The notes below the pieces were generated by a model, which was not told the origin of the DNA, ran no database searches, and saw only the letters and a program-made list of their open reading frames with translations. From IMG/VR virus record IMGVR_UViG_3300011472_000011, positions 1 through 64,000 of that record: 64,000 bases of DNA. One strand, given 5' to 3'. The position numbers were made by a program, and so were the translations under genes. The DNA is from an uncultured virus (IMG/VR IMGVR_UViG_3300011472_000011). Taxonomy: Duplodnaviria > Heunggongvirae > Uroviricota > Caudoviricetes. The first letter of the stretch is position 1. Every line of letters begins with the position of its first letter. Below are positions 17,647-40,568 of this stretch, piece after piece.

Positions 17647-17706
17647 TAATTTTCCTTTCTGACTTCATTTCATGTTGTAATAAAGTGATTATTATAGGTT
17701 CTTAAA

Positions 17707-18421: not shown

Positions 18422-19063
18422 TTAAGCAAGATTGTTTTGTATATTATTTAAAAATTTTTCATTGTATACTTTCTTATTATATCTAATCCAATCTATTATA
18501 GGCAGACCTTCATATCCTTTTTCCCAAACATACCATGCATAGCATTGGGCACCTTGATTGNNNNNNNNNNTCCAACAATCTATTCTATCTGAGAATATAT
18601 AAACCTTTTTCGGTGGATGATTCTTAAATAAATTTTCGTATCTGCTTTGACTTTCTAAAAATAACAGTTTTAAAAACATATAAACTCTGCCGTTTTCTCT
18701 AACATCATCTATCGCTTTTAAAATCATCTGTTGTGTATTTCTCTGATACGGTGGATTAGTAATAATAATATCATATTTATCTTTAAAATTAGTTTGTAAG
18801 TAGTCCGTGTTTCCTACACCATATCCTCTATCAACCAAGTCATAACTATCAACTTTTTGACCTGTTAATTTCTCTAATCTTTTTGAAAGATTGCCCTCAC
18901 CTGCCATTGGTTCTAATATTGATTTTCCAATGAAGTTTATGCCCTCTCTTTCAAGTAGCAAATCAATTGCTATTGGATTAGAAGCATAATAATTATATTC
19001 TTCTCTTTCATGTTCGGTATGATTAGAAGCTCCTAGTGTTTTATATACCCTATCTAATGTCAT
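18422..19063 (-). CDS. DNA methyltransferase (NPPY type); contains an assembly gap
   Basis: LEPMAGEG and IITNPPY; start likely ATG at 19063; 10 N at 18561-18570. Confidence 0.8.
   Translation of the reverse strand: MTLDRVYKTLGASNHTEHEREEYNYYASNPIAIDLLLEREGINFIGKSILEPMAGEGNLSKRLEKLTGQKVDSYDLVDRGYGVGNTDYLQTNFKDKYDIIITNPPYQRNTQQMILKAIDDVRENGRVYMFLKLLFLESQSRYENLFKNHPPKKVYIFSDRIDCWXXXXNQGAQCYAWYVWEKGYEGLPIIDWIRYNKKVYNEKFLNNIQNNLA
18561..18570. other. scaffold gap (10 N)
   Basis: nnnnnnnnnn in sequence. Confidence 1.
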
Positions 19064-19067
19064 AAAT

Positions 19068-19151
19068 TTACCACCTATATCTATCTGATAGACTACCAAG
19101 CAGCACCCCTAGAAGCCAACCTAGCATTATCAACAATGTTTTATCTTCCAT
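19068..19151 (-). CDS. 27-aa hydrophobic micropeptide, not in ORF track
   Basis: MEDKTLLIMLGWLLGVLLGSLSDRYRW fills the gap between primase and MTase exactly. Confidence 0.5.
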   Translation of the reverse strand: MEDKTLLIMLGWLLGVLLGSLSDRYRW

Positions 19152-19153: not shown

Positions 19154-20194
19154 TTACATTACTGCCTTTCTACTATTATATAAATATTCCCATTGCTCCT
19201 TAGTGATATCTGAAGGACTTGATTTTTCAGGAATATTTATTATAGACATATCTATATAAGATATATCTGCAAACTTTTTTGTTTTTTCTATCACCATTTT
19301 GTTTAATTTCCTTCCAGCTTCATCATTATCACCACATACAATTATCTTAGCTCCGGTCTTTAACAATATATAAATCTGATTATCACTTATCGAACTTCCC
19401 ATTGTTGCAACTGTATTATCAATTCCCCATTGGTGTAATCTCCAAATACTTTTAAAACCTTCAAATAATATAACTTCGTTAAATAAATCAATAAACGGAT
19501 CAGCTCTACTAATGTTGTATAATGTTTTAGTCTTATCTATTCCTGGGTACAATAAATATTTCTGTAAATTTTCAAACTCTATATCTTCATCAGACTTAAT
19601 GCTTCTACCTGACACAGTCAATATGCTGCCATCTGGATTATCAATAGGTATTGTTATTCTATCTGCAAAATAGCCGTCAAAAGTAAAACTAAGACTGAAA
19701 TATTCTCTTGTTTCATTGTCAAATCTCTCTTGTCTTAATACCGTATGAAGCTTAGGAATAAATGTATTTAATATTCTGTTGTCAAAGACCGCAATTTCTT
19801 CGTTTTTCTTTTTGTTTCTAATTTGTTTTACTTGTTTTAAAAAGTTCAAGTTATCAGCATTTACGGCAGCACTTTTACTTTTAAAACCAATTTCCTTACC
19901 TATCAAATCTGATATAAATTCTATAGCTTCTGTGAAATCACAGCTCTTTGCTGCCATAATAATATTGTATATATCATAGCTTTTGTGGCATTTAGTAAAA
20001 CAATAGCCTGTGCCTTGAGAAACTTTAAAACTAAACGCATTAGGATTGTCTGCTCCCTCATGAAATGGGCATATTGATGTTATCCTATCACCAATTTTAT
20101 TAACTTCCTTCAATCCTAGTTGTTTAAATAAGGTCTCTATTCCTATTTTTTCATCAATATTTTGTGATATTGTTGATTTATCAGTAGATAACAA
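19154..20194 (-). CDS. dnaG: DNA primase (CHC2 zinc finger + TOPRIM)
   Basis: CPFH...C...C, RITIPI, LFEG..S, DNDEAG. Confidence 0.88.
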   Translation of the reverse strand: MLSTDKSTISQNIDEKIGIETLFKQLGLKEVNKIGDRITSICPFHEGADNPNAFSFKVSQGTGYCFTKCHKSYDIYNIIMAAKSCDFTEAIEFISDLIGKEIGFKSKSAAVNADNLNFLKQVKQIRNKKKNEEIAVFDNRILNTFIPKLHTVLRQERFDNETREYFSLSFTFDGYFADRITIPIDNPDGSILTVSGRSIKSDEDIEFENLQKYLLYPGIDKTKTLYNISRADPFIDLFNEVILFEGFKSIWRLHQWGIDNTVATMGSSISDNQIYILLKTGAKIIVCGDNDEAGRKLNKMVIEKTKKFADISYIDMSIINIPEKSSPSDITKEQWEYLYNSRKAVM

Positions 20195-20210
20195 TATTAA
20201 TCACACCTAT

Positions 20211-21563
20211 CTATTGATATTCATCTTCTAATATTTGATTTGGTGCTTGTCCAAAGGTTACTGTAGGTCTATCGTACAATAAATTGATTCCTTTCCCTTC
20301 TTCCTGCATAGAAGCACCATTTCTATTGTAATCAACAAACATATAATCTAATCCACCTGCTATACCACCATCTCTGGCAATTTGTTCTTTTGTCTTAGGA
20401 AGAAGATAAGCTATTGTTGAAGCATAACGATTTAATTTGTCACTGTCCGCTAATCTCGTTTCATGAGGTGACATCTGACCAAAAGTCAAAATTGGTATAT
20501 CAAGCTCTCCTGCTAAGTCTTTTAGGAATATTGTCCAGTTGCCAAGCTCATTATGTTCTTTAATACTGTTATCGCCTACCTCTTTTACTTTTATGTAATC
20601 ATAAATAAGCATCTGTATTCCAAACTTGGCTTTAAGTAAAAGTGATAAGTCTCTAATCTTTGCTTTTGTCCAATCATATTCATATCTATGAATTATTGGT
20701 GCTTCCTTAATTCTTGTTTTAGCTTTTTCAACTTTCTCTATTTTTATTGGATCATTTAAATATGTTCCTTTTTCTATTTCTTTTATTGCTATCCCTGAAT
20801 CAATTGCAACCATTCTTGTTATAAAGGTTTCCGTTTTCATTTCTCCGTCAAAGTAGGCTATGGGTATTCCTTTTTTAACCGAAAGATAATGTATTTCATT
20901 CGCAGCAAATGCACTCTTTCCGTATTTTGCCCTTGCTCCAATTATGACAAGTTCGCTTTTTCTGTGAGTAAAAAATTCATTAACCATAGGAATTTTAGAC
21001 GGTAAACCTACTATTCCATCTTCACTCCTATTATTCTCAATATTTTCCCATGTTTCGTCAAAAATATCTTTTATTAAGCTAACATCAGAGCCTATAGAAA
21101 ATTTAGTCTGCAATTCAAATTGTTTTGTTTGCAGCCATTCGTTTATGTCTTCCGTAGTCCATTGCTCATTAGTTTTAATTAATTCTAAAAATTCTTCTTT
21201 TTGTTTAATTTGTTCTCTCTTATAAGCACATTCAATTACAATAATTGCATGTGTTTTTAAGTCAGCTCTAGTATAATCCTCGCCAAGATATTTAATATTT
21301 TCAAGATATTCATATCCTCCAGAGCCTTCAATAATATCAACCGCTTCTTTAAATTTTTCAGCTCTTGATAATATTACTAAGCTATCTATTGTAGGAGCAT
21401 TTTCTTGTATCAATTTATTAATAAGAAAATATATCCATTTATGAACTTTATCAAAGAAATATTCTGCTCTTAGTCCTACATTATCAATTATCCAATTAGG
21501 ATTATTTAGTAATATTCCTATAATAATTCTTTCTGATGTTTTATTCTTTATTGCTATTTCCAA
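20211..21563 (-). CDS. dnaB: replicative DNA helicase, DnaB-like
   Basis: GARAKYGKS Walker A, IYDYIK, LKDLA.EL.IPI...Q. Confidence 0.85.
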   Translation of the reverse strand: MEIAIKNKTSERIIIGILLNNPNWIIDNVGLRAEYFFDKVHKWIYFLINKLIQENAPTIDSLVILSRAEKFKEAVDIIEGSGGYEYLENIKYLGEDYTRADLKTHAIIVIECAYKREQIKQKEEFLELIKTNEQWTTEDINEWLQTKQFELQTKFSIGSDVSLIKDIFDETWENIENNRSEDGIVGLPSKIPMVNEFFTHRKSELVIIGARAKYGKSAFAANEIHYLSVKKGIPIAYFDGEMKTETFITRMVAIDSGIAIKEIEKGTYLNDPIKIEKVEKAKTRIKEAPIIHRYEYDWTKAKIRDLSLLLKAKFGIQMLIYDYIKVKEVGDNSIKEHNELGNWTIFLKDLAGELDIPILTFGQMSPHETRLADSDKLNRYASTIAYLLPKTKEQIARDGGIAGGLDYMFVDYNRNGASMQEEGKGINLLYDRPTVTFGQAPNQILEDEYQ

Positions 21564-21580
21564 AGAATATCACTCCTTTT

Positions 21581-22039
21581 TTACCGTTGTTTATCTAACA
21601 TTTCTTTAATAGATAGACTTGAATTATTATTGATTATTTTATTAAACTTCTTCTCTTTCTCCATCTCAGCAACTTCTTTTTCAATCACATATAGCATAAT
21701 TCCATAACCTTTAAATTCCTTACCTTTATCAAAGTAGTGTTTAAAGGCTTCTAACTGAACATCATAGCTATATCCTTGCTGTGCTAATTTAGCTATTTGT
21801 ATACATATAAGCCTAGTCTGTTCTTCTGTTAATTTATCAATCTCAGGATTTTGTTCTTTCATTTTAAACAATACTGCATTAAGTATTGCTTCTTTACCCT
21901 GTTTTAACTCAATCTTCTTTGTATCTTGACGCTGTTTTTTTACACATTTCGTATGAAAAGCTGTTCCGTTAACAATAGTACAACTGGGCTTACCCGTTAA
22001 AACACCTTTTTTACATAATGGGCAAATTTCTCTTGCCAT
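21581..22039 (-). CDS. zinc-finger replication-module protein
   Basis: CPLC...HTKC N-terminus; lies directly upstream of the helicase. Confidence 0.55.
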   Translation of the reverse strand: MAREICPLCKKGVLTGKPSCTIVNGTAFHTKCVKKQRQDTKKIELKQGKEAILNAVLFKMKEQNPEIDKLTEEQTRLICIQIAKLAQQGYSYDVQLEAFKHYFDKGKEFKGYGIMLYVIEKEVAEMEKEKKFNKIINNNSSLSIKEMLDKQR

Positions 22040-22054
22040 TTAATCACCTCATAG

Positions 22055-22402
22055 TTATCTTACTCCTAATACTCTCATAAGCCTTCCTTCTGCAATTAGC
22101 ATTTCTAATTTATTTAGCTTACCAATCTTAAAATCTAATCTTTTTTTTGATATAGTTTTTATTTGCTCTAGTTGAACAAATGATGGTTTGCTCAATTTTA
22201 CAGGCATATGACAGTAGTTTTCATTTTTTATCTGTGAAGTTATAGTTGCAACAATGATTGTAGCAAGCCTCTTATTTAAGTCATTGTTTTGTAGTATCAA
22301 AACAGGTCTACTACCCTTTTGTTCACTACCAACTGTTTCATCTTCAAAATTTGCATACCATATTTCACATCGTTCAACATCTAAATTTTTCTTCTCTGTC
22401 AT
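22055..22402 (-). CDS. mazF: PemK/MazF family endoribonuclease, no adjacent antitoxin
   Basis: GSEQ.G.RPVLILQN, ITS, LEQI.TISK.RL. Confidence 0.85.
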   Translation of the reverse strand: MTEKKNLDVERCEIWYANFEDETVGSEQKGSRPVLILQNNDLNKRLATIIVATITSQIKNENYCHMPVKLSKPSFVQLEQIKTISKKRLDFKIGKLNKLEMLIAEGRLMRVLGVR

Positions 22403-22459
22403 AGCATTTCACCTTTGAACTTGGTATAGATGATATAAAACCATCTATACCAATTAATA

Positions 22460-23620
22460 TTATTGCAAACTCTTTGCGTAAACTAATAATTCCTTTGCTT
22501 TTTCTATATCTTCAATTTGTCCGAATTTAGAACATCCAACATGTTCTTTTAATGTACTTACTATCTTTTGAGCTGTTATTTGTTTATCCTTTAATAATTG
22601 AGTAAAGATTTCCTGTATCTCATTAACCACTACTTCTAAGTCATTGTTATTTGACTCTTCAGGAGCAGGATCTTCATGGAATTCAGACCTTTCTTGCTCT
22701 GGAATTTTCTCTGCCTCATTATTTTTCTTTTTATCTTTTTCTTCTTTAGACTTATCTTTTGTAGTAGTGTTTTTAGTTGACTTAACCTTTTCTTTGTTAG
22801 ATACACCTGTAAATTTACTTGCAAAAGGCAACTTGCCAACATTATCAACTACAATATTGAATTCTTTAAAGATTGCTTCATCAAATGCCTTTCTGATGTT
22901 ATAAGCTGCCTCTTCAGGGCTATCTCCGTACTCTATAAATTCAGGGAAGAAAAGCAATCTTGCTTTTGCTTCAAAATCTCCATCACTTCTAAAGTAGATT
23001 CTTCTTACTATTTTTTCATTTCCATCTTCATCTTTTATTTTTTCAAACACGCAATATCCAACAAAATCTACTCTTCCAACAATAGTGTCCATAGCAGAAT
23101 TCGCAATAGATGGCATGATTTTGTCATACTTTTCCCCACGCTTAGGTTTTATTTCTTTGTCTTTTATATGAGAAACATATACCGGAGACAAGCCTAAATC
23201 TTCAAGGTTTTTCATTTTAAGTTCAAATTCTCCACGAACTGCATTCCAACCTTTACCCCATTCACCTTCTGAGGGATCTGTCCATCCATTATCTAAACAC
23301 ACCTTGTCCTTACAGCAATCAAATGCTACATCCGCTGTATCCATTATTGGAGTCTTAAATGGCATTTGTTTACCTGCCTTAGCTCCTGCCTGCAACACTT
23401 TAATATCAGTTCCAAATGTTCTCCAATCAGGTGCTCTCCATTTCTTAGCTCTTAATGCATTTTGTCCTTTTTCCCACTGAAAAAATGTAGGATCGTCGAA
23501 TAAAACAGCACACAAACTACTTTTACCAAAGCCATAATGTCCATAAAATGACCATGTATAATCATTAATATTAACTTTAGGTTCCTCTATCTCTATATCA
23601 AAAATACTTTTTTCTGCCAT
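22460..23620 (-). CDS. AAA_24/Sak4-like ATPase
   Basis: YGHYGFGKS, IMDTAD, G.GW, SH...K; Lys/Glu-rich tail. Confidence 0.75.
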   Translation of the reverse strand: MAEKSIFDIEIEEPKVNINDYTWSFYGHYGFGKSSLCAVLFDDPTFFQWEKGQNALRAKKWRAPDWRTFGTDIKVLQAGAKAGKQMPFKTPIMDTADVAFDCCKDKVCLDNGWTDPSEGEWGKGWNAVRGEFELKMKNLEDLGLSPVYVSHIKDKEIKPKRGEKYDKIMPSIANSAMDTIVGRVDFVGYCVFEKIKDEDGNEKIVRRIYFRSDGDFEAKARLLFFPEFIEYGDSPEEAAYNIRKAFDEAIFKEFNIVVDNVGKLPFASKFTGVSNKEKVKSTKNTTTKDKSKEEKDKKKNNEAEKIPEQERSEFHEDPAPEESNNNDLEVVVNEIQEIFTQLLKDKQITAQKIVSTLKEHVGCSKFGQIEDIEKAKELLVYAKSLQ

Positions 23621-23669
23621 ATAATTAACTCCTTCATTTAATTTTAAATAAGATTGTATTGTGTGCTAT

Positions 23670-24347
23670 TTAAAAAGGTGACTCTTCCAAATCATCATCA
23701 TTAGTTAAATCATCAGCCAGCACTACACTGTCAATTTTCTCAACTTTAAACATTTGAGATCTTCCAACTATATCTCCATAATCATCATATTCAATCTCAT
23801 TAAGAATCTGACCTTTAAATTTAGCATTACAGCCTTTCTCAATTCCGCTCTCAAATACTAAATCTTCTGTAGCCTGAATATTAAATATAGAAGGTTCCTT
23901 TTCAACTAAATTACCTTCTTTATCAGTATAATTTTCATCATGACTGATTTTAATTAATGCTCCATCAGGTATTTGTCTTATTTGTTCAACAATTCCCTGA
24001 AGAATGAATGTTACATTATAACGGTCATCTTTAACATAAGCTTCAACCTTATTAGCTGAAATACTTCTGTCAATACCTTTTTGTCCTGTTCTAGTCTCGA
24101 ATTCATTCTCAACAACTTTTCCTACAGCTTCAACTATAGAGCCAATAGGAAATAATTCTTTGATATTCTTATCTTTATTTGGTTCACTCTCAGTTGGGAA
24201 TAATGTTATTTTAGCCTTATTTCCCTGCAACGTGTCCACTTCCATTGATAAGAAATGCCCTTTCTTTTTACCTTCATACTCAACAATCTCTACTCTTGTT
24301 ACTTTACCTCTTGCCGTACCTTTGTTAAAAAACTTTGCTTTTGCCAT
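23670..24347 (-). CDS. single-stranded DNA-binding protein-like (two OB folds, acidic tail)
   Basis: Ends DDDLEESPF; AGGAGG RBS before ATG at 24347; first gene of replication operon. Confidence 0.65.
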   Translation of the reverse strand: MAKAKFFNKGTARGKVTRVEIVEYEGKKKGHFLSMEVDTLQGNKAKITLFPTESEPNKDKNIKELFPIGSIVEAVGKVVENEFETRTGQKGIDRSISANKVEAYVKDDRYNVTFILQGIVEQIRQIPDGALIKISHDENYTDKEGNLVEKEPSIFNIQATEDLVFESGIEKGCNAKFKGQILNEIEYDDYGDIVGRSQMFKVEKIDSVVLADDLTNDDDLEESPF

Positions 24348-24422
24348 TATTTGTCCTCCTATTATTTTATAATTAAGCAAGCTTGTTTTATGTATAAAAA
24401 CTAAAAACGCTACTGCCATATA

Positions 24423-24451
24423 ATTTTATCATGTCATGCGTCTTTTGTCAA
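24423..24451 (-). promoter_or_regulatory. sigma-A promoter of replication operon; repeated element downstream at 24373-24386
   Basis: TTGACA-17 bp-TAAAAT with TG extension. Confidence 0.75.
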
Positions 24452-24479
24452 TACCTTAAAAAAATATTTTTTATTATTT

Positions 24480-24683
24480 TTAGCAATAACAATAAAATTT
24501 ATCACTGTAAAAACTAACTAAACTTATTAAACGAATATCATTAACTCCATTTTCATTAATTAAATTTTCAATTATACCTATCCCCGTTTTGGGGTTTATA
24601 ATTCCAGATATTATTTCATCTTCTATGTATTGCAGCATACCTTCCAAAACGTTTTCTTCCATTATTATTGTGTTTTTTTGCAT
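24480..24683 (-). CDS. small acidic hypothetical protein
   Basis: 67 aa, AAGGAG RBS. Confidence 0.55.
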   Translation of the reverse strand: MQKNTIIMEENVLEGMLQYIEDEIISGIINPKTGIGIIENLINENGVNDIRLISLVSFYSDKFYCYC

Positions 24684-24745
24684 GATAATACTCCTTTTCT
24701 AAAATATGTAGTTGATTTTTATAAAAGAGTATGTTAATATTAGTT

Positions 24746-24833
24746 TATAGAATGTATGTTTGTTAGCATACTCTTTTTAAATAGGAAACTGGTTGCTCCC
24801 GCTCAAAGTTGCTACCATGTTTCTTATTTTTTT
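24746..24833 (+). ncRNA. putative cis-antisense sRNA (about 90 nt)
   Basis: Plus-strand promoter TTGATT-17-TAATAT (24712-24740) and terminator stem AATAGGAAAC.../GTTTCTTATT-T run; antisense to the leader of 24480..24683. Confidence 0.5.
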
Positions 24834-24843
24834 AAGCTTTGTT

Positions 24844-25260
24844 TTATGAGTAAGGACTTATTGGTTGTAAGTTTAAACCTACAGCTCCTAAAGCAACTTC
24901 TACATCTTCTTTATTTTGCCATTGAGGTTCAACGGATATAATATCTGAATATCCTACATTTAACTCATCAGGATATATTCTATTTACTCCGTATGTTAAA
25001 AAGTCATACCAATATTTTACCATATATTTATTAATATCTTCTTCATTCATATCCTTAAAAGCTGCTATTGAACTAGAAATAGACAAATAAATATTTCTAT
25101 AATTGTATCCATAAGGAAAGCTCGTCCTTCTTGTATAGTGAGTAATCCAACTCTGTATTATAATAATACTCTTTCTTCCAAGAATAGGATCAAACCCAAC
25201 ATTACTTAACATGCAAGCAGAATTTTTAAATGCTCTAGTCCGACAATCTGTATTATCCAT
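24844..25260 (-). CDS. hypothetical protein
   Basis: 138-aa ORF with RBS and own promoter. Confidence 0.6.
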   Translation of the reverse strand: MDNTDCRTRAFKNSACMLSNVGFDPILGRKSIIIIQSWITHYTRRTSFPYGYNYRNIYLSISSSIAAFKDMNEEDINKYMVKYWYDFLTYGVNRIYPDELNVGYSDIISVEPQWQNKEDVEVALGAVGLNLQPISPYS

Positions 25261-25295
25261 TTTACCACTTCCTTTTGTTCAAATAGTTTAAATAT

Positions 25296-25324
25296 ATTGT
25301 AACATCTTGAAAGAAGCTTGTCAA
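25296..25324 (-). promoter_or_regulatory. sigma-A promoter
   Basis: TTGACA-17 bp-TACAAT with TG extension. Confidence 0.7.
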
Positions 25325-25484
25325 CCCCGAACTTTTATAAATTCCGTTAATTTCACTTATATTCTTTAATTAACAGTTACTTATTTATTTCACTTCAATT
25401 AGTTTAATTCATTTCATTTCTTTTCATTTATTTTCATTTATTTTAATAGTTTAACATTTAAAAACACTATTCAATACAAACCTT

Positions 25485-25498
25485 CGAACAATAGTTCG
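25485..25498. promoter_or_regulatory. LexA (SOS/Cheo) box
   Basis: CGAACAATAGTTCG = CGAAC-N4-GTTCG, just downstream of a promoter. Confidence 0.7.
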
Positions 25499-25513
25499 AT
25501 TCTTATATGGTCA

Positions 25514-25542
25514 ATTTTAACATATGATTTTGATAAAGTCAA
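25514..25542 (-). promoter_or_regulatory. sigma-A promoter, probably LexA-repressed
   Basis: TTGACT-17 bp-TAAAAT with TG extension. Confidence 0.65.
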
Positions 25543-25600
25543 TAATAACTAATTGGGATTTTTTATAATATATTGAATCCAATTTATTATTCAAATTTCA

Positions 25601-26719
25601 TCATATTTTAAACTTTTCAGGATATAAAAATTGAGCAATTTTAATATATCTCCTAGTTACTGTAATATTAGTATCACCCATAATTGCCATAACTTTAGCT
25701 TCTGGTATTCCATCTGCTAATAATTTAACTCTTCTGCTGTCTCTTATAGTTTCTGTTGTTATTTTCTTTTCTTTTTCATTAACAGCCTTGTTTAACTCAT
25801 TCTCATTGTTAAATTCCTTCGCGAGCTCGTTTAAATAATACTCTTTTACAGCTTTACTAAGTATTGTATTTATAGTTGCAGGATTAATCCTTTCATCATT
25901 CACATGCCTGTAAGTCTGAAATAGATATTCAGATCTCTGTATTGGATCATACGGCTCTCCAGTTCTATCAGACCTCCTTTTCCTAGTTTCATTTGTTTCA
26001 TTTATTAAATCTGTTTTCTCTGTTAAAAATTCATTTATTAATACAATTAAATCAGGAGTTAATTCTGCTATTCTATCTATTTCACCATCATTATTATAAA
26101 TCTTTAAATACGTTTTTTCGAAATCTATTGCTTTTTCTTTTAAATTTCTTAATTCAATTCTCTTTAAACCAAACCTATATAGTAAAGTAATTAAAAGCTC
26201 ATCTTGTTTTCTGCTTGTTGAATTAATTATGCCGATAATTTCTTCTTCTCTTAAGGCTACTTCTTCTATATTTTTACTTTCCATAGGTATCTTCAAAGAT
26301 TCAATATTTGGAAAATAATCATAATATTTAGCATTAACATAATTAAATAATTGTTGTAATGCTGTTTTATATATTCTTTTAGTTGATTGAGTAACACTAT
26401 CAGATAAGTCTTTAATCCAATTCTCAACATCTTGATATGTTATTTGTTTTGCATTATTTTCCTTATATAAATCAAAGACATCATTAATGTTATCCTTCTT
26501 ATATACAAAGTTAAAAAACGAATGAATCGCATACTTATATGTATTTTTTGTTCCATAGCTGAAACCTTCGATTTCTTTCATGTAATCATCATATAAATAT
26601 GGTATTAAAATATCAACATTATCTGTATTTTCCAATACCTTTTCTTTAAATTCATTTTCATCTAACAAACCTAAATCAATTAATTTTTTTACAGTATCAG
26701 CATCAAATTTATTACTCAC
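25601..26719 (-). CDS. tyrosine-recombinase-fold protein with degenerate active site (candidate repressor)
   Basis: Integrase architecture, but FGLKRIEL (R to K), TETIRDS (HxxR lost its H), MGDTN (H to D); Tyr retained in TRRY. Confidence 0.75.
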   Translation of the reverse strand: MSNKFDADTVKKLIDLGLLDENEFKEKVLENTDNVDILIPYLYDDYMKEIEGFSYGTKNTYKYAIHSFFNFVYKKDNINDVFDLYKENNAKQITYQDVENWIKDLSDSVTQSTKRIYKTALQQLFNYVNAKYYDYFPNIESLKIPMESKNIEEVALREEEIIGIINSTSRKQDELLITLLYRFGLKRIELRNLKEKAIDFEKTYLKIYNNDGEIDRIAELTPDLIVLINEFLTEKTDLINETNETRKRRSDRTGEPYDPIQRSEYLFQTYRHVNDERINPATINTILSKAVKEYYLNELAKEFNNENELNKAVNEKEKKITTETIRDSRRVKLLADGIPEAKVMAIMGDTNITVTRRYIKIAQFLYPEKFKI

Positions 26720-26733
26720 CTTTTCACCCTTTC

Positions 26734-27064
26734 TTATTTTATTAATCCCTTTTTCTTTGCTTTTTCTAATTTAATATTTGCATTAAAAAGTTCATTTTCT
26801 ATTTTTCTTTTGTTATTTTCTTTTTCTAAACTCCATTTCCATTCAAGAATACTACATATTAATTTAGCCATCTTTCCAATTAGCGATTTATTTTTTAATT
26901 CTACAAAAACTGGTCTATCATTTATTATTATCTTGTTAAGTTGATTTTCTGCTTTTCTTTTTTGCTCCTCTGCCTTAGCTACTTGCAATTCAGCAGCAAC
27001 TAAATTCCTTATTTGTTTTTCTGATAAAACATATACCTTTTCATTTTTATCATTGATATTTCAT
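26734..27064 (-). CDS. small coiled-coil protein; the RBS-linked ATG at 27064 is out of frame by one base
   Basis: GAGGAGG-ATG AAA TAT CAA TGA; removing one A gives MNINDKNEKVYVLSEKQIRNL... continuous with ORF 26734..26988. Confidence 0.5.
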
Positions 27065-27096
27065 AAACCTCCTCTTCATTAATAATTTATAAGACC

Positions 27097-27126
27097 ATTT
27101 TAATATTAAATAATATCGTTTGTCAA
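27097..27126 (-). promoter_or_regulatory. sigma-A promoter for the repressor-like operon
   Basis: TTGACA-18 bp-TAAAAT. Confidence 0.55.
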
Positions 27127-27155
27127 CACATTATTTGTACTAGTTTTTTATTAAA

Positions 27156-28349
27156 CTAGTATTTAATTAACCCTTTTGCCATTTTCTCTAATACACCAAT
27201 AAACCAATTAGGGTCTTGGTTGATATTGCCTTCAACAAAATCTTTTAGTTCCTCCGAAGCATCTTCTGGAATAACTATGTTCACTCTAACTTTTCGCTCC
27301 TGCTCTACTACATTAAATAGCTCCTTTATTTCTGTTTTATTTAATGGCTGCACATTTGTTTTATTATCTTTATTTTTATCATTAAAAGCTTTTTTAACAA
27401 CTTTAGCAGCTTTAGATTTTAATAATTCTGCCGGTTCAGATGACTTTTCAATAATATCTAATAAGTTTCTTTGTGTTTTTTCATCTACAAGACCAAGTTC
27501 AAAACCTGTATTTGGTGCTATTTCTTCATTATCAAGTTTTTCTTTAAACTCAGGGATAAGATTATTTAATCTAAGATATCTACTTACAGTCACACCAGAA
27601 ACTTTAAATTCTTCTCCAACCTTTTCTAAATAGTTGAATTTTTCACCGCTTTCAGACTTTTGCCCTTGTCTTTTTCCAATTTGCCTTGCTTTTATTTCAT
27701 ATGCCTTAGCTATTTCCAATGGTTTTAAATCATCTCTTTGAGCAACATTTGTATCAGAAATTATTTCTTCTGCATCATCATCATTGACGTTCTTAATTAT
27801 AGAAGGCACTTTAAGTAATCCTAAATCTTTACAAGCATCAACCCTATTTCTTCCTGCTAGTATATCAAACCTTCCGTTATTAGGTCTTACAAGTATAGGA
27901 TTTAAGACTCCTAAATCTGCAATGCTTGATTTTAATTCGTTGAACTTAGAATCACTTAGTTTTGAAAAGAAATTCAATGGTGAATTGTCTAATAAGTCAA
28001 TATCAAGTTCTTTTACCTGTCCTGATTTCATAGCTACATCAATATCACTAACCAATTCCACGTCACTATTAACTTCAGTGTCATCATTTGGAAGCATATC
28101 ATCTAAGCTGCATAACTCCATCTTATCTTCTGTACAGTTTAATCCAGGTGTATCTTCTGTATTATTTATTTCCAGATTGTCCTCAATTATACCAAGCTCA
28201 ATATCTGCCACTGGATTATTAGTGTAATAATCTACCAAAGCATTCACTATCTCTTGTTTCTTTAATCCTGAAAAATCAACACCTACTTTTACAGCCTCAT
28301 CTCTTAATTCAAATAAATTCATTTTTTGTATTTGTTCTATTTTACTCAT
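27156..28349 (-). CDS. parB: ParB/Spo0J-like protein with N-terminal Rho-N-like helical domain
   Basis: L..SI...GVLNPILVRP, ILAGRNR..A, N..QRDDL.P.E.A, HTH VSRYLRL. Confidence 0.85.
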   Translation of the reverse strand: MSKIEQIQKMNLFELRDEAVKVGVDFSGLKKQEIVNALVDYYTNNPVADIELGIIEDNLEINNTEDTPGLNCTEDKMELCSLDDMLPNDDTEVNSDVELVSDIDVAMKSGQVKELDIDLLDNSPLNFFSKLSDSKFNELKSSIADLGVLNPILVRPNNGRFDILAGRNRVDACKDLGLLKVPSIIKNVNDDDAEEIISDTNVAQRDDLKPLEIAKAYEIKARQIGKRQGQKSESGEKFNYLEKVGEEFKVSGVTVSRYLRLNNLIPEFKEKLDNEEIAPNTGFELGLVDEKTQRNLLDIIEKSSEPAELLKSKAAKVVKKAFNDKNKDNKTNVQPLNKTEIKELFNVVEQERKVRVNIVIPEDASEELKDFVEGNINQDPNWFIGVLEKMAKGLIKY

Positions 28350-28374
28350 ATTTTCTCTCCTCTTATTTTTTAAT

Positions 28375-28671
28375 TTAATTTTTTATTAAGCTAAATATAT
28401 CTTCCCATGTTTCATATTTATCTAAATCTTCTTGTAATACTAACAGTGCATATTTACCTTCTATTTCTTCTGATGTACCATAACTATTAAAACTTGGGCA
28501 TGAACCATATCCACCCATCATAGGTTGTATATGTGAATACACAATTACCATTTTCTCATGGTTTTCCATATGAGTAGCAAAACTGTCTATCTGTATAATA
28601 CTATCAGATGCTTTACTTTTATAAATATCACCTATTTTCATTTCGTGAACCTTCCTTTTACTTTTCATCAC
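28375..28671 (-). CDS. hypothetical protein
   Basis: ORF in operon. Confidence 0.55.
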   Translation of the reverse strand: MMKSKRKVHEMKIGDIYKSKASDSIIQIDSFATHMENHEKMVIVYSHIQPMMGGYGSCPSFNSYGTSEEIEGKYALLVLQEDLDKYETWEDIFSLIKN

Positions 28672-28700
28672 TTAAAATCAATATAATATAATTAACCTTA

Positions 28701-28886
28701 TTAATATTTATTAACTCCAATATTAATATACATGCTATTCCTATATCCTTGTTCTAGCTTTACAAATTTTCCTATTCCAATCTCATGCGGTTCTGCATCA
28801 TCGTATTCATAATCGTATATATATGGAATTACCTCCGTTTCATCATTAATATCTTTAAATAAATCCTTCCATTCTTTAGCTTTCAT
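28701..28886 (-). CDS. hypothetical protein
   Basis: ATG at 28886 overlaps the integrase stop; GAGGAG RBS. Confidence 0.55.
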   Translation of the reverse strand: MKAKEWKDLFKDINDETEVIPYIYDYEYDDAEPHEIGIGKFVKLEQGYRNSMYINIGVNKY

Positions 28887-29887
28887 ACATCCAACTCCTC
28901 TGCCCATTCATTTGCTGGATTATCTTTAGTTATTTTATTTGTATGGTCATATCTTCTTGTTGTACTTGATGAAATATGACTAACTCTATCTTGAACAACT
29001 TCCATAGGTATACCCGCATCTAAAGATTCAGTTATATATGTGTGCCTTAAACAGTGTGGGTGAATGCTACTTGCATCTAATCCAGCTTTTTTAGCTACCG
29101 CCTTAACAACTCTATAAACAGTTTGTGTTGTTATGGGTCTAGTTTCTTTATAACTTCTTGAATATGTAACTAATGTATGAGATACAAACAAATACCTATT
29201 TTTACTTTGCAAAGTCAATCCTCTCATACTTAGATATTCTTCTATATACTTCATAATAATATCAGCTACAACAACCATCCTGTCTTTCATACCTTTACCG
29301 ATAAATTCAATCACATGATTTTCATTGTATATTCCAAAATCACTTAGTTTTATATTTGCAATCTCTTCCCTTCTCATGCCAGTTGTTGCTAACAAAAGTA
29401 TGATTATTTTATTTCTTAACCCAATAATTGATTTATCTTCATTTAGAGCCTCCATCATCTTTTTAACTTCATCCTTAGTTAAAGCCCTGGTATTAGAGTA
29501 ATTCCTTGTTTTAAACCTCACAGCTCCTTCTTCTGTAGATACAGGGTTGTAGTCCATAATACCTACGTTTTTTCTACATAAATATTTATAGAATTTAGAT
29601 AGTGCTTGTAGTTTTCTGTTAACAGTTGAAGTTGATGCTCCATCAACAACTAATTTTTTAGCATATTTGTTTATCATAGCCGGGCTAACACTTCTAACCA
29701 TGTCTATTGTTACCTCGTAAACACTTTCGACATTAAAAAAAGACCTTATATCTGATAAATAAGCTCTCTTAGTTTCATCTGCTAATTGTCCTGCAAATTC
29801 TGCAATATACGGTTTAAAATATTTAATAGGTTGGCTTTCACTTTTTTCTAAAGCAAAGTCATAAGTTTCATTTAGGTTTTCAAACAA
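28883..29887 (-). CDS. tyrosine recombinase/integrase (XerC/D-like), intact active site
   Basis: TGMRREE, HPHCLRH, VSH, TTRRY. Confidence 0.9.
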   Translation of the reverse strand: MFENLNETYDFALEKSESQPIKYFKPYIAEFAGQLADETKRAYLSDIRSFFNVESVYEVTIDMVRSVSPAMINKYAKKLVVDGASTSTVNRKLQALSKFYKYLCRKNVGIMDYNPVSTEEGAVRFKTRNYSNTRALTKDEVKKMMEALNEDKSIIGLRNKIIILLLATTGMRREEIANIKLSDFGIYNENHVIEFIGKGMKDRMVVVADIIMKYIEEYLSMRGLTLQSKNRYLFVSHTLVTYSRSYKETRPITTQTVYRVVKAVAKKAGLDASSIHPHCLRHTYITESLDAGIPMEVVQDRVSHISSSTTRRYDHTNKITKDNPANEWAEELDV

Positions 29888-29911
29888 TTATTATCACCTC
29901 CATTGAATTTA

Positions 29912-30280
29912 TCAAGTGATTGAATAGCCATTCTCATTAAGTTCAAAACCTAATTCTTTCAATCTTCTTACATGTTCAGCAACAAACTCTTTTCCTGCTA
30001 TTTCTGCTTCTTTTTTCGTTTCAAACACTTTAGTTTTCCACTTTCCTAATATCAAGTCTAAATTATTAATATTTACTATTATAGGCTCAATCTCTGAAAA
30101 CCTTGTGTGACATAACATATCTTGGCTGCATCTTCCTTCAAATGCTTTAGGATATAGCTTATCAAATTTTTCTTTTTGGAATAAGCAAGCATCACAGCAG
30201 TCTGTATGAAATCTATAAACAATAGTTCCTAAAGGAACAGGTAAGTTTATTATTTTCTTGTCTTGACTTATAAAACTCAT
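29912..30280 (-). CDS. hypothetical phage protein
   Basis: LPVP.G..VY...VFETK.EAE phage pattern. Confidence 0.6.
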   Translation of the reverse strand: MSFISQDKKIINLPVPLGTIVYRFHTDCCDACLFQKEKFDKLYPKAFEGRCSQDMLCHTRFSEIEPIIVNINNLDLILGKWKTKVFETKKEAEIAGKEFVAEHVRRLKELGFELNENGYSIT

Positions 30281-30304
30281 ATTTATATATTCTCCTTACT
30301 TACT

Positions 30305-30673
30305 TTACTTTTCAAACTCTTCCTTTAATTTCCGATACGCTTCGTATCGCTCTTGTTTTAAACGTTCCTGTAATTTTAATTCTTTATCTTTTATCTCTTC
30401 TTTCTTTTCTTCAAGAAAATCATTTAAAGCTGCATCTGATGTTAAACATAATTTAGGTACAGACAAAGTATTAAGTATATCTCCTTCAAAATCTATAAGC
30501 TGCATTTTCACCTCATCACCATAAAATTCAAAATTAATCGTATCTTGTGACCAACATTTAGTCTCAAATTTAGTAAAAATTTGAATCCCCCTGTTTTGAA
30601 GTTTAAATGATAGAACTTTCAAATGTTCAGTCATCTCACAATACTGATCTAATTCCTTTTCTGTTAATATCAT
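30305..30673 (-). CDS. hypothetical protein
   Basis: ORF with RBS; ends Y.KLKEEFE. Confidence 0.6.
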   Translation of the reverse strand: MILTEKELDQYCEMTEHLKVLSFKLQNRGIQIFTKFETKCWSQDTINFEFYGDEVKMQLIDFEGDILNTLSVPKLCLTSDAALNDFLEEKKEEIKDKELKLQERLKQERYEAYRKLKEEFEK

Positions 30674-31032
30674 TTTAAATTCTCCTTATATTTTCTGTTC
30701 CAGCAATCTATACAACCGCCAATTTCCGAATAACCGCATTCCTCAAATTTAGCCTTATCGCCGTATAATACATCTGGGCAAATAATAGACTTACTACCTC
30801 TAAAGGTATTCATTGGTAGACCCTCCGTGGTCTTGCGTATAGTAGGATATTTTTCCAGCAGCACCGACAAATAAGTCTTGACCGGATTTTCTTTCGCCCA
30901 CTGCTCGACGATTGCGACGGCTTGTTCGGGGTGTAGCGTTTCATTTAATTCACAACCTAATGAACATGTCTTACAATCACTATTACAGTTAGCCATCCTT
31001 ACGTACTCTTTCAAATACTCAACTGCATCCAT
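30670..31032 (-). CDS. Cys-rich hypothetical phage protein
   Basis: MDAVEYLKE..RM...VE.WAKENP.KT...C..CWN family pattern. Confidence 0.65.
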   Translation of the reverse strand: MDAVEYLKEYVRMANCNSDCKTCSLGCELNETLHPEQAVAIVEQWAKENPVKTYLSVLLEKYPTIRKTTEGLPMNTFRGSKSIICPDVLYGDKAKFEECGYSEIGGCIDCWNRKYKENLK

Positions 31033-31054
31033 TGTTTTCTCCTTTTATATTAAT

Positions 31055-31081
31055 AAAAAAGCACCTTTATTCAGATGCTTT
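31055..31081 (-). terminator. intrinsic terminator after rtcB
   Basis: AAAGCATCT-GAATAA-AGGTGCTTT then T run. Confidence 0.6.
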
Positions 31082-32290
31082 AAAGTTATATATTGGTTTA
31101 ATTATATCGATGATTTCAACTGTATCTTTAATGTTTTCTATTATCTCCTCTATTGGTTTATAAGCCATAGGAGCTTCATCTAAAGTTGATTGATTTACAG
31201 ATGTTGTATAAATTCCATCCATTTGATTCTTAAAATCATCTAAAGAGATACTCTCCTTTGCTTTCGCTCGACTCATTAGTCTCCCCGCTCCATGTGGAGC
31301 TGAATAGTTCCAGTCATCATTGCCTTTGCCAACACATATAAGACTTCCATCTCTCATATTAATAGGTATAATGACTTTTTCTCCTTTGTATGCACTTATA
31401 CTTCCTTTTCTGATTATATTATCCTTGAAATTTATATAGTTATGAATTGTTTCAAAGTTACTATAGTCATCTATAGTCTTTTCAAACATTTTATCTAAAA
31501 TAATATTTGCCATAGTACGTCTATTTAATGTCGCATATTCTTGACAAATTTTCATATCAGCCAGGTATCTATCTCTCCATATGCCTTCTAAAAAACATAG
31601 TGCTGGAGGATAATCAGGAGTTGTTGTTTTATATTCCTTTTCCAATTCCTTTAAAACTTTTTGTATCTCTTTTCTCCTACCAGTTTCTTTGTATTCTTTG
31701 ATTATTTCTTCTCTATTGACGTAATATTCTTCTCTCCCACTTCTAAGCTCTATAGCCATTCTTTGGTAATATTCAGCCACCTGTTTACCTAAGTTTCTGC
31801 TCCCTGAATGGATTACCAGATATTGGTTGCCTTTGCTATCCTTGTTAATTTCGATGAAGTGATTACCACCACCTAAAGTTCCTACACTTTTCTTGATTCT
31901 TTTTGTATCTTTTAGTTCTCTATAGCAATACAATTCCTCAAATTTCTTAAATTCAGTAATTACGCTCTCATGTGTATTCTTGCCACTTGGCACATATTCA
32001 TTAATTACATTATCAAGCTTTTTGAGGTCCACATATGTGTCTTTCAGCTCTATAACTTGCATTCCGCACCCAATATCGACACCTACGATGTTTGGAATAA
32101 CTTTGTTTCCTAAATCCGCTGTAAATCCTATTACACATCCTGCTCCTGCATGAGTGTCCGGCATTATTCTGATTTTACATTCATTTGTAAAATCTTGATT
32201 GCATAAATTAATAATTTGAGAGATAGTTTCTTCATCTATGTTATTAGTAAATACTTTTGCTGTATTATATCTGCCTTGAATTTCTATCAT
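31067..32290 (-). CDS. rtcB: RtcB family RNA ligase
   Basis: MPDTHAG, VGVDIGCG, GTLGGGNHFIE, HSGSR, HN, RKG, SAPHGAGR, DEAPMAYK. Confidence 0.93.
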   Translation of the reverse strand: MIEIQGRYNTAKVFTNNIDEETISQIINLCNQDFTNECKIRIMPDTHAGAGCVIGFTADLGNKVIPNIVGVDIGCGMQVIELKDTYVDLKKLDNVINEYVPSGKNTHESVITEFKKFEELYCYRELKDTKRIKKSVGTLGGGNHFIEINKDSKGNQYLVIHSGSRNLGKQVAEYYQRMAIELRSGREEYYVNREEIIKEYKETGRRKEIQKVLKELEKEYKTTTPDYPPALCFLEGIWRDRYLADMKICQEYATLNRRTMANIILDKMFEKTIDDYSNFETIHNYINFKDNIIRKGSISAYKGEKVIIPINMRDGSLICVGKGNDDWNYSAPHGAGRLMSRAKAKESISLDDFKNQMDGIYTTSVNQSTLDEAPMAYKPIEEIIENIKDTVEIIDIIKPIYNFKASE

Positions 32291-32317: not shown

Positions 32318-32673
32318 TTATTCTTGCACTTCAAACTCTCTTATTATAGCGTCCCATTCTTCCCATCTTTTTGCTCCTTCGATTTTTAAAACTTCGTTAT
32401 ATTTATCTCTAAATTCTTTAACCTTCTTTTCATTAAAAGATACCATCTCTATATTTTCAGAATAATCATCTCCAGAACCTTTAGAAGATACAACCATAAA
32501 AACCTTTGTAGCTACTGATTGTCCCTCTGGAACATACTTTTTAAGTATTATTTCACCTTCTCTATCAGTAAATATTTCTAAAGGATCTCCTTCCCTAATT
32601 CTCAACGTTCTTCTTTAGGGATAACCACTCTTCCCAAGTCATCAATTCTTCTGACAATTCCAGTTGCTTTCAT
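32318..32673 (-). pseudogene. AbrB/SpoVT-family regulator, frameshifted near 32608
   Basis: MKATGIVRRIDDLGRVVIPKE in one frame continues as TLRIREGDPLEIF.DR.GEIILKKY in another. Confidence 0.8.
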
Positions 32674-33665
32674 AACTTATGTTCCTCCGTATTTATAAAA
32701 TATTCTGTTTCTTCTCTATTCCAGCTCAGAGATAATTCACTATTTACTAACAGCTTCAGATTATTTATTTTATTTTCTTTTATTACTTTTTCCCTGAGCT
32801 TACCATGTTGGTTATAATTTATAATAATAGGCTTATCTAATAAAATCATTGAATATTCTACAAATCCAAAAGTTTCCTTGTTTCTTATAATTGGATAGTC
32901 TGCAAAATTATTTTCTATATTGTACCATAGATAATCATAATCTTCATCAGATAAAATATGTTCTCTATTAAATTCTGTAACTTCGTTAACTGTGCTAAAG
33001 CTATCCGTTTTAAGTAAAGGACTGATTTTTACGCTATTACAATAATCTTTAACTTGATTATAAAAGTACAAAATATCATCAAGATTATCATTGTTTCCTT
33101 TGAAACAATTATTGTTAATTCTTATTGACACATTATATTCATTAGCTATTTTCTTAAATTCTTTCAAATGTTCTAAGCTTACATATGTAACACTTCCTGA
33201 TATAAATTTCTGCTTATCTTCATCTAAAGTCATTACCGAAATATTCATATGAGTAATTCCTGACGACATCAATTTACGGCAATAATCCAAATCTTTACTT
33301 ATTCTGTGACCGTTTGTCGTTATACAAATTTTGCTCAAATCAAATTGCCTTAAGTATTTTATTATCTCAAAGATATCATTATTTATTGTAGGCTCTCCAC
33401 CAAGTAACAAAACTTCCTTAACACCCATATTTTCTATAGCATATTTTATTTTTGGTTTATGTTTTTCAATATCACATATTTCTTTTTTATGAATCAAATG
33501 AGAGATACAAAATTTACATTGTGCATTGCAGTAATCATTAAACACTATATCAAGGTAAGGATATGTACTTAGTAAAAAGTTTTTTCCGTTGTTATCAAAA
33601 TCTTTATAATCAACTTTTCTGCATATTTCATATTCGTTAAAATTAGTAACCTTTATGTTATTCAT
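32670..33665 (-). CDS. radical SAM protein
   Basis: CNAQCKFC, GGEPT, TTNG. Confidence 0.85.
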   Translation of the reverse strand: MNNIKVTNFNEYEICRKVDYKDFDNNGKNFLLSTYPYLDIVFNDYCNAQCKFCISHLIHKKEICDIEKHKPKIKYAIENMGVKEVLLLGGEPTINNDIFEIIKYLRQFDLSKICITTNGHRISKDLDYCRKLMSSGITHMNISVMTLDEDKQKFISGSVTYVSLEHLKEFKKIANEYNVSIRINNNCFKGNNDNLDDILYFYNQVKDYCNSVKISPLLKTDSFSTVNEVTEFNREHILSDEDYDYLWYNIENNFADYPIIRNKETFGFVEYSMILLDKPIIINYNQHGKLREKVIKENKINNLKLLVNSELSLSWNREETEYFINTEEHKL

Positions 33666-34357
33666 TATTTATCACCAACCTTATACTGTGGCAATAAAAC
33701 ACCATTAACCTTAAATATATTAGCATATTGTTTTGGTATTTCTGGATATTCTTCTTTAAATAGATGTTCATAAGCTTTCTTTCTACCTTCGATATATTGA
33801 TATGCTTTATTTTTATCCGTATATCGCTTTCTATATTGTCCTGCTAAAGAAGTATTCCGATTACTCAAAGGGCTGTTTGTATATAAATTCCATGTCACAT
33901 ACCATGCTACAGGTTCGCTTTCTTCAGTTTTTCTATTATATTTTGTATCTTCATATATATCATAAGTCATTTTATAAACGGCATTTGATATTTCAAAATA
34001 ATTATTATATTGACCTGTTTGCCATTTATTATTAGTATGTTTTACTTTTGGCGCATTTAAGTATTCGATAGCCATTTTAGCTATTTTAGTTTGTTCAGCT
34101 GCTGCTGCCCATTCATTTAAAGAATATCTTAATTTTTCATATATCTTTTGTTCTTCATTAATTCGATTTTTTAGTATTATATCTATTTCTCTTTGATTAA
34201 GAACTTTATCAATTTTATTTTTAGATATCAAATACTTAATATCTTCTGTGTTCTTATCAGTCTTAGGATAAATGCTGCAATTGAGCTTTATTTCTCTACC
34301 ATGATTGATACCACATCCATAGTCATAAACACTAAATCTTTCATCATCTTTAAACAT
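33665..34357 (-). CDS. hypothetical protein
   Basis: 230-aa ORF coupled to neighbours. Confidence 0.6.
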   Translation of the reverse strand: MFKDDERFSVYDYGCGINHGREIKLNCSIYPKTDKNTEDIKYLISKNKIDKVLNQREIDIILKNRINEEQKIYEKLRYSLNEWAAAAEQTKIAKMAIEYLNAPKVKHTNNKWQTGQYNNYFEISNAVYKMTYDIYEDTKYNRKTEESEPVAWYVTWNLYTNSPLSNRNTSLAGQYRKRYTDKNKAYQYIEGRKKAYEHLFKEEYPEIPKQYANIFKVNGVLLPQYKVGDK

Positions 34358-35338: not shown

Positions 35339-35344
35339 TTCCTT

Positions 35345-40536: not shown

Positions 40537-40568
40537 TTTTATTTCCTCCTCTTTATTTGTAATTTTAT

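Follow-up and report, generated by a model that had tools for sequence, protein, structure and literature searches.

How a large phage might hold lysogeny when no CI-like repressor is visible is the question raised by one gene in a 64,000-nucleotide stretch of DNA from an uncultured virus of the Caudoviricetes (IMG/VR record IMGVR_UViG_3300011472_000011), hereafter the window. The gene, on the minus strand at 25601-26719, encodes a catalytically degenerate protein of the tyrosine-recombinase fold (372 amino acids (aa), GTG start). It is very probably a non-catalytic, DNA-binding pseudo-recombinase under selection. Most likely, this protein descends from an Xer-type recombinase and serves as the lysogeny repressor of a large SPbeta-style temperate phage of the Bacillota. 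The closest known system is MrpR (YopR, SroF), the master repressor of SPbeta-like Bacillus phages (PDB 8A0A, 8BJ6, 9RD5; Pfam PF22822, MrpR_N_CB, and PF22823, MrpR_C_cat). A repressor role is suggested by the gene order of the locus, the design of a dispersed box, an inverted copy of this box in the spacer of a sigma-A-like promoter and a LexA box behind the gene. That the protein acts as an MrpR/SroF-like master repressor on oriented boxes, relieved through an SOS-induced neighbor gene, is given about an even chance.

The protein matches the Pfam family Phage_integrase (PF00589) with 44.0 bits, above the cutoff of 27.1. Its catalytic columns were set by phmmer alignment to the archaeal XerA (4a8e) and by family alignments. 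The Arg-I position is occupied by K186 ('GLK'), with R187 next to it, the His-II position by E323 ('TETIR') and the His/Trp-III position by D349 ('MGD'); these are the three substitutions that the original prediction had read from the sequence alone, and the alignments bear them out. A fourth change is likely at the beta-hairpin Lys, where D211 is found, in a gappy column whose placement is less secure. Arg-II is retained as R326 and the nucleophilic Tyr as Y358, but the full R-K-H-R-H/W plus Tyr set is absent. The predicted structure (pLDDT 88.2) exhibits the complete recombinase fold, with a core-binding and a catalytic domain. Two additions are visible: a SHOCT-like extra segment at the N-terminus, present in 5 of 23 family members, and a long helical insertion at residues 222-253. 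According to Pfam, the protein contains neither an HTH_3/Xre nor an S24 peptidase domain.

The degeneration is not restricted to this one protein. An exhaustive HMMER search of 1.84 billion cluster representatives returned 22 proteins at E ≤ 1e-10, matched over their full length and 24-65% identical; below these, the scores fall to ordinary recombinases matching mainly the first half of the query. In the resulting 23-row alignment, the His-II column contains Glu in 21 rows, Gly in one and Gln in one, and never His. The His/Trp-III column holds Asp (19), Glu (2), Val (1) and Ile (1), and neither His nor Trp in any row. At Arg-I, Arg (11) and Lys (10) are nearly balanced, with one Thr and one His, and the hairpin Lys is present in only 3 of 23. 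Even the nucleophile drifts: Tyr is found in 12 rows, Phe in six and His in two, followed by Ser, Leu and Met, so that it is gone in 11 of 23. On the other hand, several basic residues are kept (R187 in 23/23, R216 and R326 in 22/23 each, R357 in 21/23) and would contact the DNA backbone. The motifs YLFQ and YPEKF are conserved as well, and all 23 members match PF00589. Judging from these alignments, the loss of catalysis is old and selected rather than the one-off decay of a single gene.

A still active recombinase or nickase with an unorthodox site, made of the Lys at Arg-I together with R187, R326 and Y358, is therefore a very remote alternative. It could draw on the Arg-II and Tyr that the window member retains. 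Moreover, some active recombinases, like IntDOT, have no Arg-I. The two His, however, are absent from all 23 members, with acidic residues in their place, and the Tyr is lost in almost half of the members while the rest of the protein, including its length and DNA-facing arginines, stays. This indicates selection for something other than catalysis. In addition, MrpR, with a similar residue pattern, showed no recombination (PMC10516654).

Relatives of the protein are scarce. They were found in Clostridia-like and Paenibacillus prophages. In a word-based protein search, the sole match besides the query was a protein with 65% identity (P0002), encoded on a 99.8-kb contig. Scans of viral contigs with the window protein, P0002 or alignment A3 yielded no relatives. 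In tblastn against 50,697 deposited phage genomes, the window protein had no match and a second family member, P0003, only hit generic recombinases; a megablast of positions 20000-32000 against deposited phages gave no match either. Among a sample of 400 genomes from the class of the Clostridiaceae genome G001 (one of them unscored), G001 alone matched. A metagenome scan added just two short contigs encoding CAT-domain-only forms of 246 and 207 aa.

Is the protein then a member of the MrpR family? In the Pfam scans, it had no match to PF22822 or PF22823 at E ≤ 1, and neither family is among the 25 listed of the 47 families matched by the 23 members. For comparison, SroF of phage phi3T matches PF22823 and PF22822 at 86 and 57 bits. 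One discordant record exists: a precomputed annotation of the window protein gives PF22823.3, from a newer Pfam release and with no score. BLASTP against phi3T SroF revealed no similarity (E 2.7). Searched against the PDB, the family profile found XerA (1e-28), IntI4 and XerD, and did not find MrpR at E ≤ 10. The hhalign scores are 108 for the family against MrpR, 123 for MrpR against Xer-like proteins and 337 for the family against Xer-like proteins, the last being inflated by at least one distant family-like row (P0029) in the Xer-like set.

The fold comparison gives the same picture. In Foldseek, SroF ranks 47th and YopR 49th, with Xer, IntI and Cre above both. In VIA-align, the Z scores are 18.5 for XerA, 17.8 for XerH, 16.8 for IntI4 and 15.4 for Cre, compared with 15.0 for DNA-bound SroF (9rd5), 14.2 for YopR (8bpz) and 13.7 for MrpR (8a0a). 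Among the matches spanning both domains, SroF 9rd5 nevertheless has the lowest rmsd, 4.2 Å over 269 residues. As Pfam, BLASTP, profile, hhalign and fold rankings all fail to favor MrpR, membership in the MrpR family is not detectable, and the protein is nearer to Xer by sequence and fold. The Xer-type proteins (XerA 4A8E and 5HXY, XerD, XerH, IntI4) are its best relatives in both respects and share the SAM-like core-binding domain followed by the catalytic domain. Unlike them, the window protein lacks the catalytic set and a dif-like inverted site, and is found in a phage regulatory context.

Resemblance to MrpR/SroF is found at other levels. Both have the two-domain tyrosine-recombinase fold, and in both Arg-I, His-II and His/Trp-III are gone, while Arg-II and, in the window protein, Tyr are retained. 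MrpR itself keeps Arg-II and Tyr, and its Y304F variant binds DNA more weakly (PMC10516654). The lost His residues are replaced by a conserved Glu and Asp in the present family, whereas they are Asn and Val in MrpR. The window protein also differs by its SHOCT-like segment and its helical insertion, the relatives reside in Clostridia and Paenibacillus instead of Bacillus, and no arbitrium genes were seen, although no dedicated search was made for them. The original prediction of a distant instance of the MrpR repurposing is partly supported: the family-wide loss of catalysis and the gene order, box design and LexA-box promoter described below speak for a similar function, but no kinship with the MrpR family is detected.

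The neighborhood of the gene is the first of these arguments. At 2.2 kb upstream, in the sense of transcription, sits a tyrosine recombinase (28883-29887, minus strand, 334 aa, 117.8 Pfam bits) in which GMRR, GKG, HCLRH, SH and RRY are all in place; the intact recombinase noted about 2 kb upstream in the original prediction is thus confirmed with every catalytic residue. The order is integrase, two small proteins of 68 and 98 aa, a ParB_N plus HTH_ParB protein (27156-28349, minus strand, 397 aa), orf84 and the dead recombinase. Orf84 (26734-26988, minus strand) is a doubtful small open reading frame (ORF) in the leader of the gene, with a TTG start and no clear ribosome-binding site; a sigma-A-like promoter, TTGACA-18-TAAAAT (27097-27126, minus strand, 11 of 12 positions), precedes both. 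After the dead recombinase come an SSB-like protein, AAA_24/Sak4, DnaB, primase, DHH and DnaE. In phi3T, the order is yopP (integrase domain), yopQ (ParB_N_Srx/DndB) and sroF, then yorG (AAA_24), yorI (DnaB), yorJ, yorK (RecJ) and yorL (DnaE), and the repressor operon of SPbeta/phi3T is described as terminating in yopP, yopQ and yopR/sroF (PMC8612738). The window gene therefore has the layout of the sro operon: it lies downstream of integrase-domain and ParB-superfamily genes, in the YopP and YopQ positions, and ahead of an AAA_24, DnaB, primase, RecJ/DHH and DnaE block. The neighbor is a ParB_N plus HTH_ParB protein here and a DndB-like one next to SroF. The integrase, ParB-fold and dead-recombinase triad is also found in Geobacillus virus E3.

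The layout varies among the relatives. In a prophage of the cultured Paenibacillus sp. MMO-177 (L002), the order is ParB, a 178-aa ORF, the family gene, then Gam, Sak4, DnaB and primase. In a prophage of the cultured Clostridiaceae bacterium M8S5 (L003), the family gene is located at a divergent junction with a sigma-like gene on either side, and no ParB or integrase was found within 10 kb of it. This matters for another explanation, in which the dead recombinase is a non-catalytic partner of the intact one, like one half of an XerC/XerD pair, aiding synapsis or directing integration, excision or dimer resolution. The intact recombinase just upstream, in the same orientation, would suit such a partnership, as would the Xer proteins being the closest solved relatives and the presence, in the Paenibacillus prophage, of a second recombinase-like frame at a distance of 14 kb upstream from the family gene. 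Yet, a scan of all ORFs of at least 300 aa within ±10 kb of the L002 and L003 family genes detected no integrase, a third integrase occupies the usual lysis-side place at contig positions 75380-76339 and no inverted core-type site flanks the gene. The partner explanation is accordingly quite improbable. A protelomerase or a partition adaptor was rejected too: size and residues do not fit, the relatives belong to integrated prophages and L003 has no ParB nearby.

The second argument lies directly behind the gene. A sigma-A-like promoter, TTGACT-17-TAAAAT with a TG (25514-25542, minus strand), starts 59 nt beyond the end of the dead-recombinase reading frame. Its -10 hexamer is followed, 15 nt downstream, by a LexA (SOS, Cheo-type) box, CGAAC-N4-GTTCG, at 25485-25498, 102 nt past the stop codon, which is the sole perfect LexA 14-mer in the 64 kb. 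The same site had been flagged in a scan as a terminator-like hairpin (25484-25499), a reading set aside for the LexA box. The 21 kb of the Paenibacillus prophage contain only two GAAC-N4-GTTC sites; these are found 335-360 nt past the family gene, inside a promoter and immediately behind it. In the Clostridiaceae prophage, the consensus CGAACACATGTTCG is found 5 nt after TATAAT and ~40 nt past the family gene, and it is the sole site in 140 kb. A LexA-box promoter is thus directly downstream of the gene in all three full-length loci; by our own arithmetic, assuming uniform placement, the joint probability of the three coincidences is ~1e-6.

This arrangement resembles Sar-SroF of phi3T and SPbeta, where an SOS-controlled small gene also accompanies the repressor gene. 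In the SroF preprint, a LexA-controlled antirepressor gene is described near sroF in SPbeta-like phages, with SOS boxes near sar-like antirepressor genes in all SPbeta-like genomes analyzed there (bioRxiv 10.1101/2025.11.27.690993). In phi3T, sar (phi3T_99) is located ~600 bp downstream of sroF; in the window, L002 and L003, the SOS-box promoter right behind the putative repressor gene likewise precedes a small unrelated gene. The difference is that the SOS-linked small genes of these three loci share no detectable similarity. In the window, the first gene after the SOS promoter is the orphan orf138 (24844-25260, minus strand), a candidate antirepressor, and the small acidic protein of orf67 (24480-24683, minus strand) is a second candidate for the SOS-induced factor. 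Between them and the LexA box, a second sigma-A-like promoter, TTGACA-17-TACAAT, is present at 25296-25324 (minus strand). A complex prediction for the dead recombinase (alignment A2) with orf138, whose own fold is uncertain, gave a score of 0.00 and a mark of 0.32, values that weigh on neither side as to binding.

The third argument is a dispersed box. The 14-bp element ACAAKCTTRYTTAA, already pointed out in the original prediction as the possible operator, is present in 16 copies at no more than one mismatch, compared with 1.19 expected, and none of 100 shuffles reaches this number. It lengthens to ~26 conserved bases, asymmetric and AT-rich, and 14 of the 16 copies run with local transcription, on both arms of the genome. 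Among the 14 boxes that are strong by a position weight matrix (PWM), nine have a ribosome-binding site with its start codon 1-37 nt behind them. As this PWM was trained on 12 of these 14 copies, the count of ACAAKCTTRYTTAA is the independent measure.

One box copy, inverted (10590-10603, plus strand), lies in the spacer of the near-consensus sigma-A-like promoter TTGACT-18-TATTAT (10609-10580) of a sigma-like gene (10019-10522), and a second, co-oriented, ~26 nt downstream of this promoter (10534-10547, minus strand). Another separates the ribosome-binding site of the SSB-like gene from the promoter at 24451-24423 (24373-24386, minus strand), and one is located upstream of the Sak4-like (AAA_24) gene (23644-23657, minus strand). 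The plus-strand copies at 46022-46035 and 53860-53873 mark the head of the rightward, late operon and the region upstream of a capsid-like gene (53898-54833), respectively. Further minus-strand copies are at 1091-1104, 4533-4546 (within the DNA polymerase gene), 8607-8620, 14321-14334, 18422-18435, 38539-38552 and 41243-41256. The remaining three fall in an ORF-free stretch: 42402-42415 and 42542-42555 on the minus strand, the latter being the partner of the inverted copy at 42575-42588 (plus strand). Furthermore, a weak box-like site (PWM 16.3) coincides in part with the promoter 27126-27097 ahead of the dead recombinase, and the -35 of the promoter at 25296-25324 overlaps a box-like sequence with three mismatches.

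A 26-bp box recognized by SroF is published (bioRxiv 10.1101/2025.11.27.690993). In phi3T, this box has 17 copies at no more than five mismatches, and all 17 are oriented alike with respect to transcription. The majority occupy short gaps ahead of genes and a few fall within genes, these being sequence matches and not all verified sites. The window thus resembles MrpR/SroF phages in having, per phage, 14-17 oriented, asymmetric, AT-rich boxes of ~26 bp in short pre-gene gaps, and its box layout matches the design of a known recombinase-fold repressor regulon. The Paenibacillus prophage has its own, different box, AAAACATAACATA, in ~20 copies, with inverted pairs in TTGACA...TATCAT promoters.

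Other repeated elements accompany the boxes. A near-perfect palindrome, ACTTTATTTCAAnTTGAAATAAAGT, occurs at 1066-1093, 8576-8603, 17655-17686, 35337-35364, 38854-38881, 45209-45240 and 55876-55903, twice exactly between a box and a ribosome-binding site; an RNA hairpin is one possible function, binding of a dimeric protein another. An analogous palindrome, GAACACCGTGTTC, follows the boxes of L002. In the same prophage, 12 promoter-like units, GCGTGTACAAA-N-TCTAGTACATAATGAGAGG, precede small early genes and the ParB operon (976-7875). In the Clostridiaceae genome, arrays of repeat units of ~175-220 bp directly follow the family gene and the sigma gene and are also found at other places in that region (L003 12297-12976 and 6881-7048; G001 ~1,077,400-1,078,100 and 988,500-991,400).

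Several observations weigh against the repressor reading. Binding and repression by the protein are inferred, as is its pairing with the box, and hhalign places the family no nearer to MrpR than generic Xer recombinases are. The contig is only ~55% complete, and the missing ~45% may thus contain a conventional repressor. The gene runs in the direction of the early and replication genes instead of diverging from them, which is also true of sroF. The three SOS-driven downstream genes have no detectable homology to one another, orf138 is an orphan and an SOS box is absent next to both CAT-domain-only relatives on the short metagenome contigs. An exact 12-mer count over 140 kb of the Clostridiaceae relative G001 revealed no comparable dispersed box. 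Finally, a -10-like TAnnnT is visible by eye inside ~9 of 13 box copies, and a sigma-A-like promoter lies within 100 nt upstream of just three of the 14 boxes, so that the box could itself act as a promoter specific to the phage, or be bound by another protein.

The last point leads to a different reader of the boxes, either a phage sigma-like factor, for which they would be promoters, or the neighboring ParB_N/HTH_ParB protein, as a KorB-like global regulator. The dead recombinase would then have a DNA-architectural role in an Int/ParB/dead-Int module, for example, in recombination control, scaffolding or prophage maintenance. In favor of this are the strict co-orientation of the boxes, their position right next to ribosome-binding sites and the -10-like hexamer within them, and candidate readers are at hand: two sigma-like genes in the window (10019-10522 and 46234-46590), two more flanking the family gene of L003 and an HTH-bearing ParB adjoining the family gene in the window and in L002. 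However, the SroF boxes of phi3T are equally strict in orientation and position, and the orientation of the window boxes is therefore no argument for promoters. An inverted box inside a sigma-A spacer, in the window and in the D11 promoters of L002, fits an operator and not a promoter. Moreover, ~26 bp of contiguous, asymmetric conservation is unlike a bipartite sigma promoter or a palindromic parS/KorB site, and none of the 18 ORFs scanned within ±10 kb in L003 is ParB-like. Another reader of the boxes is, on this evidence, rather unlikely. A YonO-type RNA polymerase was considered for the same function and rejected: the 599-aa ORF at 36627-38426 does not resemble YonO of phi3T, nor does it have a relative of solved structure.

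As for a conventional repressor, none is seen on the contig. The ORF set consists of 96 non-overlapping frames of at least 45 aa on the 76.5-kb contig, 62 of them scanned with Pfam and 70 with PHROGs (four small ones are in neither set). No Xre/HTH_3 domain, S24 peptidase family or repressor-named PHROG was detected in the 92 ORFs scanned, so the earlier remark that no CI-like repressor is visible also holds beyond the window, within the limits of the contig.

With the dead recombinase as the repressor, the switch would operate as follows. The protein would be expressed from its own sigma-A-type promoter at 27126-27097. Like SroF, it would wrap as a monomer around the ~26-bp box with its core ACAAKCTTRYTTAA. 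Its targets would be the boxes in early and middle gene leaders, at the head of the late operon and, inverted, in a promoter spacer. In the lysogen, the bound protein would silence the genes with boxes, chiefly the two-box sigma-like gene 10019-10522. Upon DNA damage, LexA would be released from its site at 25485-25498 and the promoter behind the repressor gene would fire. A small product, from orf138 or orf67, would then inactivate the repressor, as Sar does with SroF. The intact integrase and the ParB-fold protein would be the counterparts of YopP and YopQ.

The genomic context is that of a large phage. The window covers the initial 64 kb of a viral contig of 76,551 bp, for which CheckV gives a completeness of ~55%; the genome is therefore probably ~140 kb. 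Transcription runs leftward in the left arm, which extends to ~45 kb and contains an SPbeta-style replication block with a DnaE-type polymerase, a DHH/RecJ-like protein, helicases, primase and DnaB, besides ribonucleotide reductase and methylases. The right arm encodes terminase, portal, capsid, tape measure, holin and lysin. The third tyrosine recombinase, beyond the window (contig 75380-76339, minus strand; L004 12381-13340), is intact, directly follows the holin and an M23 lysin, 212 bp from the contig end, and is likely the true integrase of the phage.

Some further features were noted along the window. Both sigma-like genes are small; 10019-10522 is on the minus strand, and 46234-46590, on the plus strand, starts the late operon. 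At the head of this operon, tRNA-Pro(TGG) (46995-47071) and tRNA-Phe(GAA) (47115-47190) are encoded on the plus strand, and the ORF 47004-47384 overlying them is probably spurious. The region 41930-43499 (1.5 kb) contains no ORF of at least 45 aa and holds three boxes, one pair of which is inverted 33 bp apart; it may be the main control region or the origin. A MazF/PemK-like toxin gene (22055-22402, minus strand) lies within the replication block, and a MazE-like fragment (32318-32605, minus strand) 10 kb away. In SPbeta, YopM of the repressor operon works via the host MazE/MazF (PMC10516654). At 39798-40572 (minus strand), an overlapping ORF pair corresponding to the N- and C-terminal parts of phrog_14105 spans four 15-bp tandem repeats (40135-40210); this is a frameshifted or repeat-variable gene. 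Ten N, an assembly gap, are found at 18561-18570, inside a methyltransferase gene (18422-19099). Upstream of the integrase are genes for an RtcB-type RNA ligase, a radical-SAM protein and an LPD34-domain protein (31067-32290, 32670-33665 and 33665-34357, minus strand), which may be an RNA-repair or counter-defense set.

A broader proposal is possible, if somewhat doubtful. An old and widespread lysogeny module of large temperate siphophages of the Bacillota could consist of the integrase, ParB-fold and dead-recombinase triad, the oriented boxes and the SOS-driven gene, and would then not be peculiar to the Bacillus phages that use arbitrium. In this lineage, the repressor would have been recruited separately from an Xer-type enzyme, or would have diverged far less from it, and its pocket would have been rebuilt with the conserved Glu/Asp pair. 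Master repressors of the recombinase fold would then comprise a second class, distinct in sequence and with specificity pairs of its own.

Experimentally, recombinase-fold repressors are known from SPbeta-like Bacillus phages only. A literature search on MrpR, SroF, YopR and recombinase-fold repressors yielded, among the matches listed, the SPbeta and phi3T work as the only relevant one, which is no proof of absence in print. The repressor operon is described as unique to arbitrium phages (PMC8612738). The family discussed here is rare and was missed by the MrpR Pfam models in these scans. If it is truly a second family, the recombinase-fold switch reaches beyond one phage genus. Annotators could then locate the repressor, its operators and the SOS trigger in large phages without a CI-type repressor. 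The two lineages would, moreover, offer a natural pair in which the conversion of an enzyme into a sequence-specific regulator could be studied.

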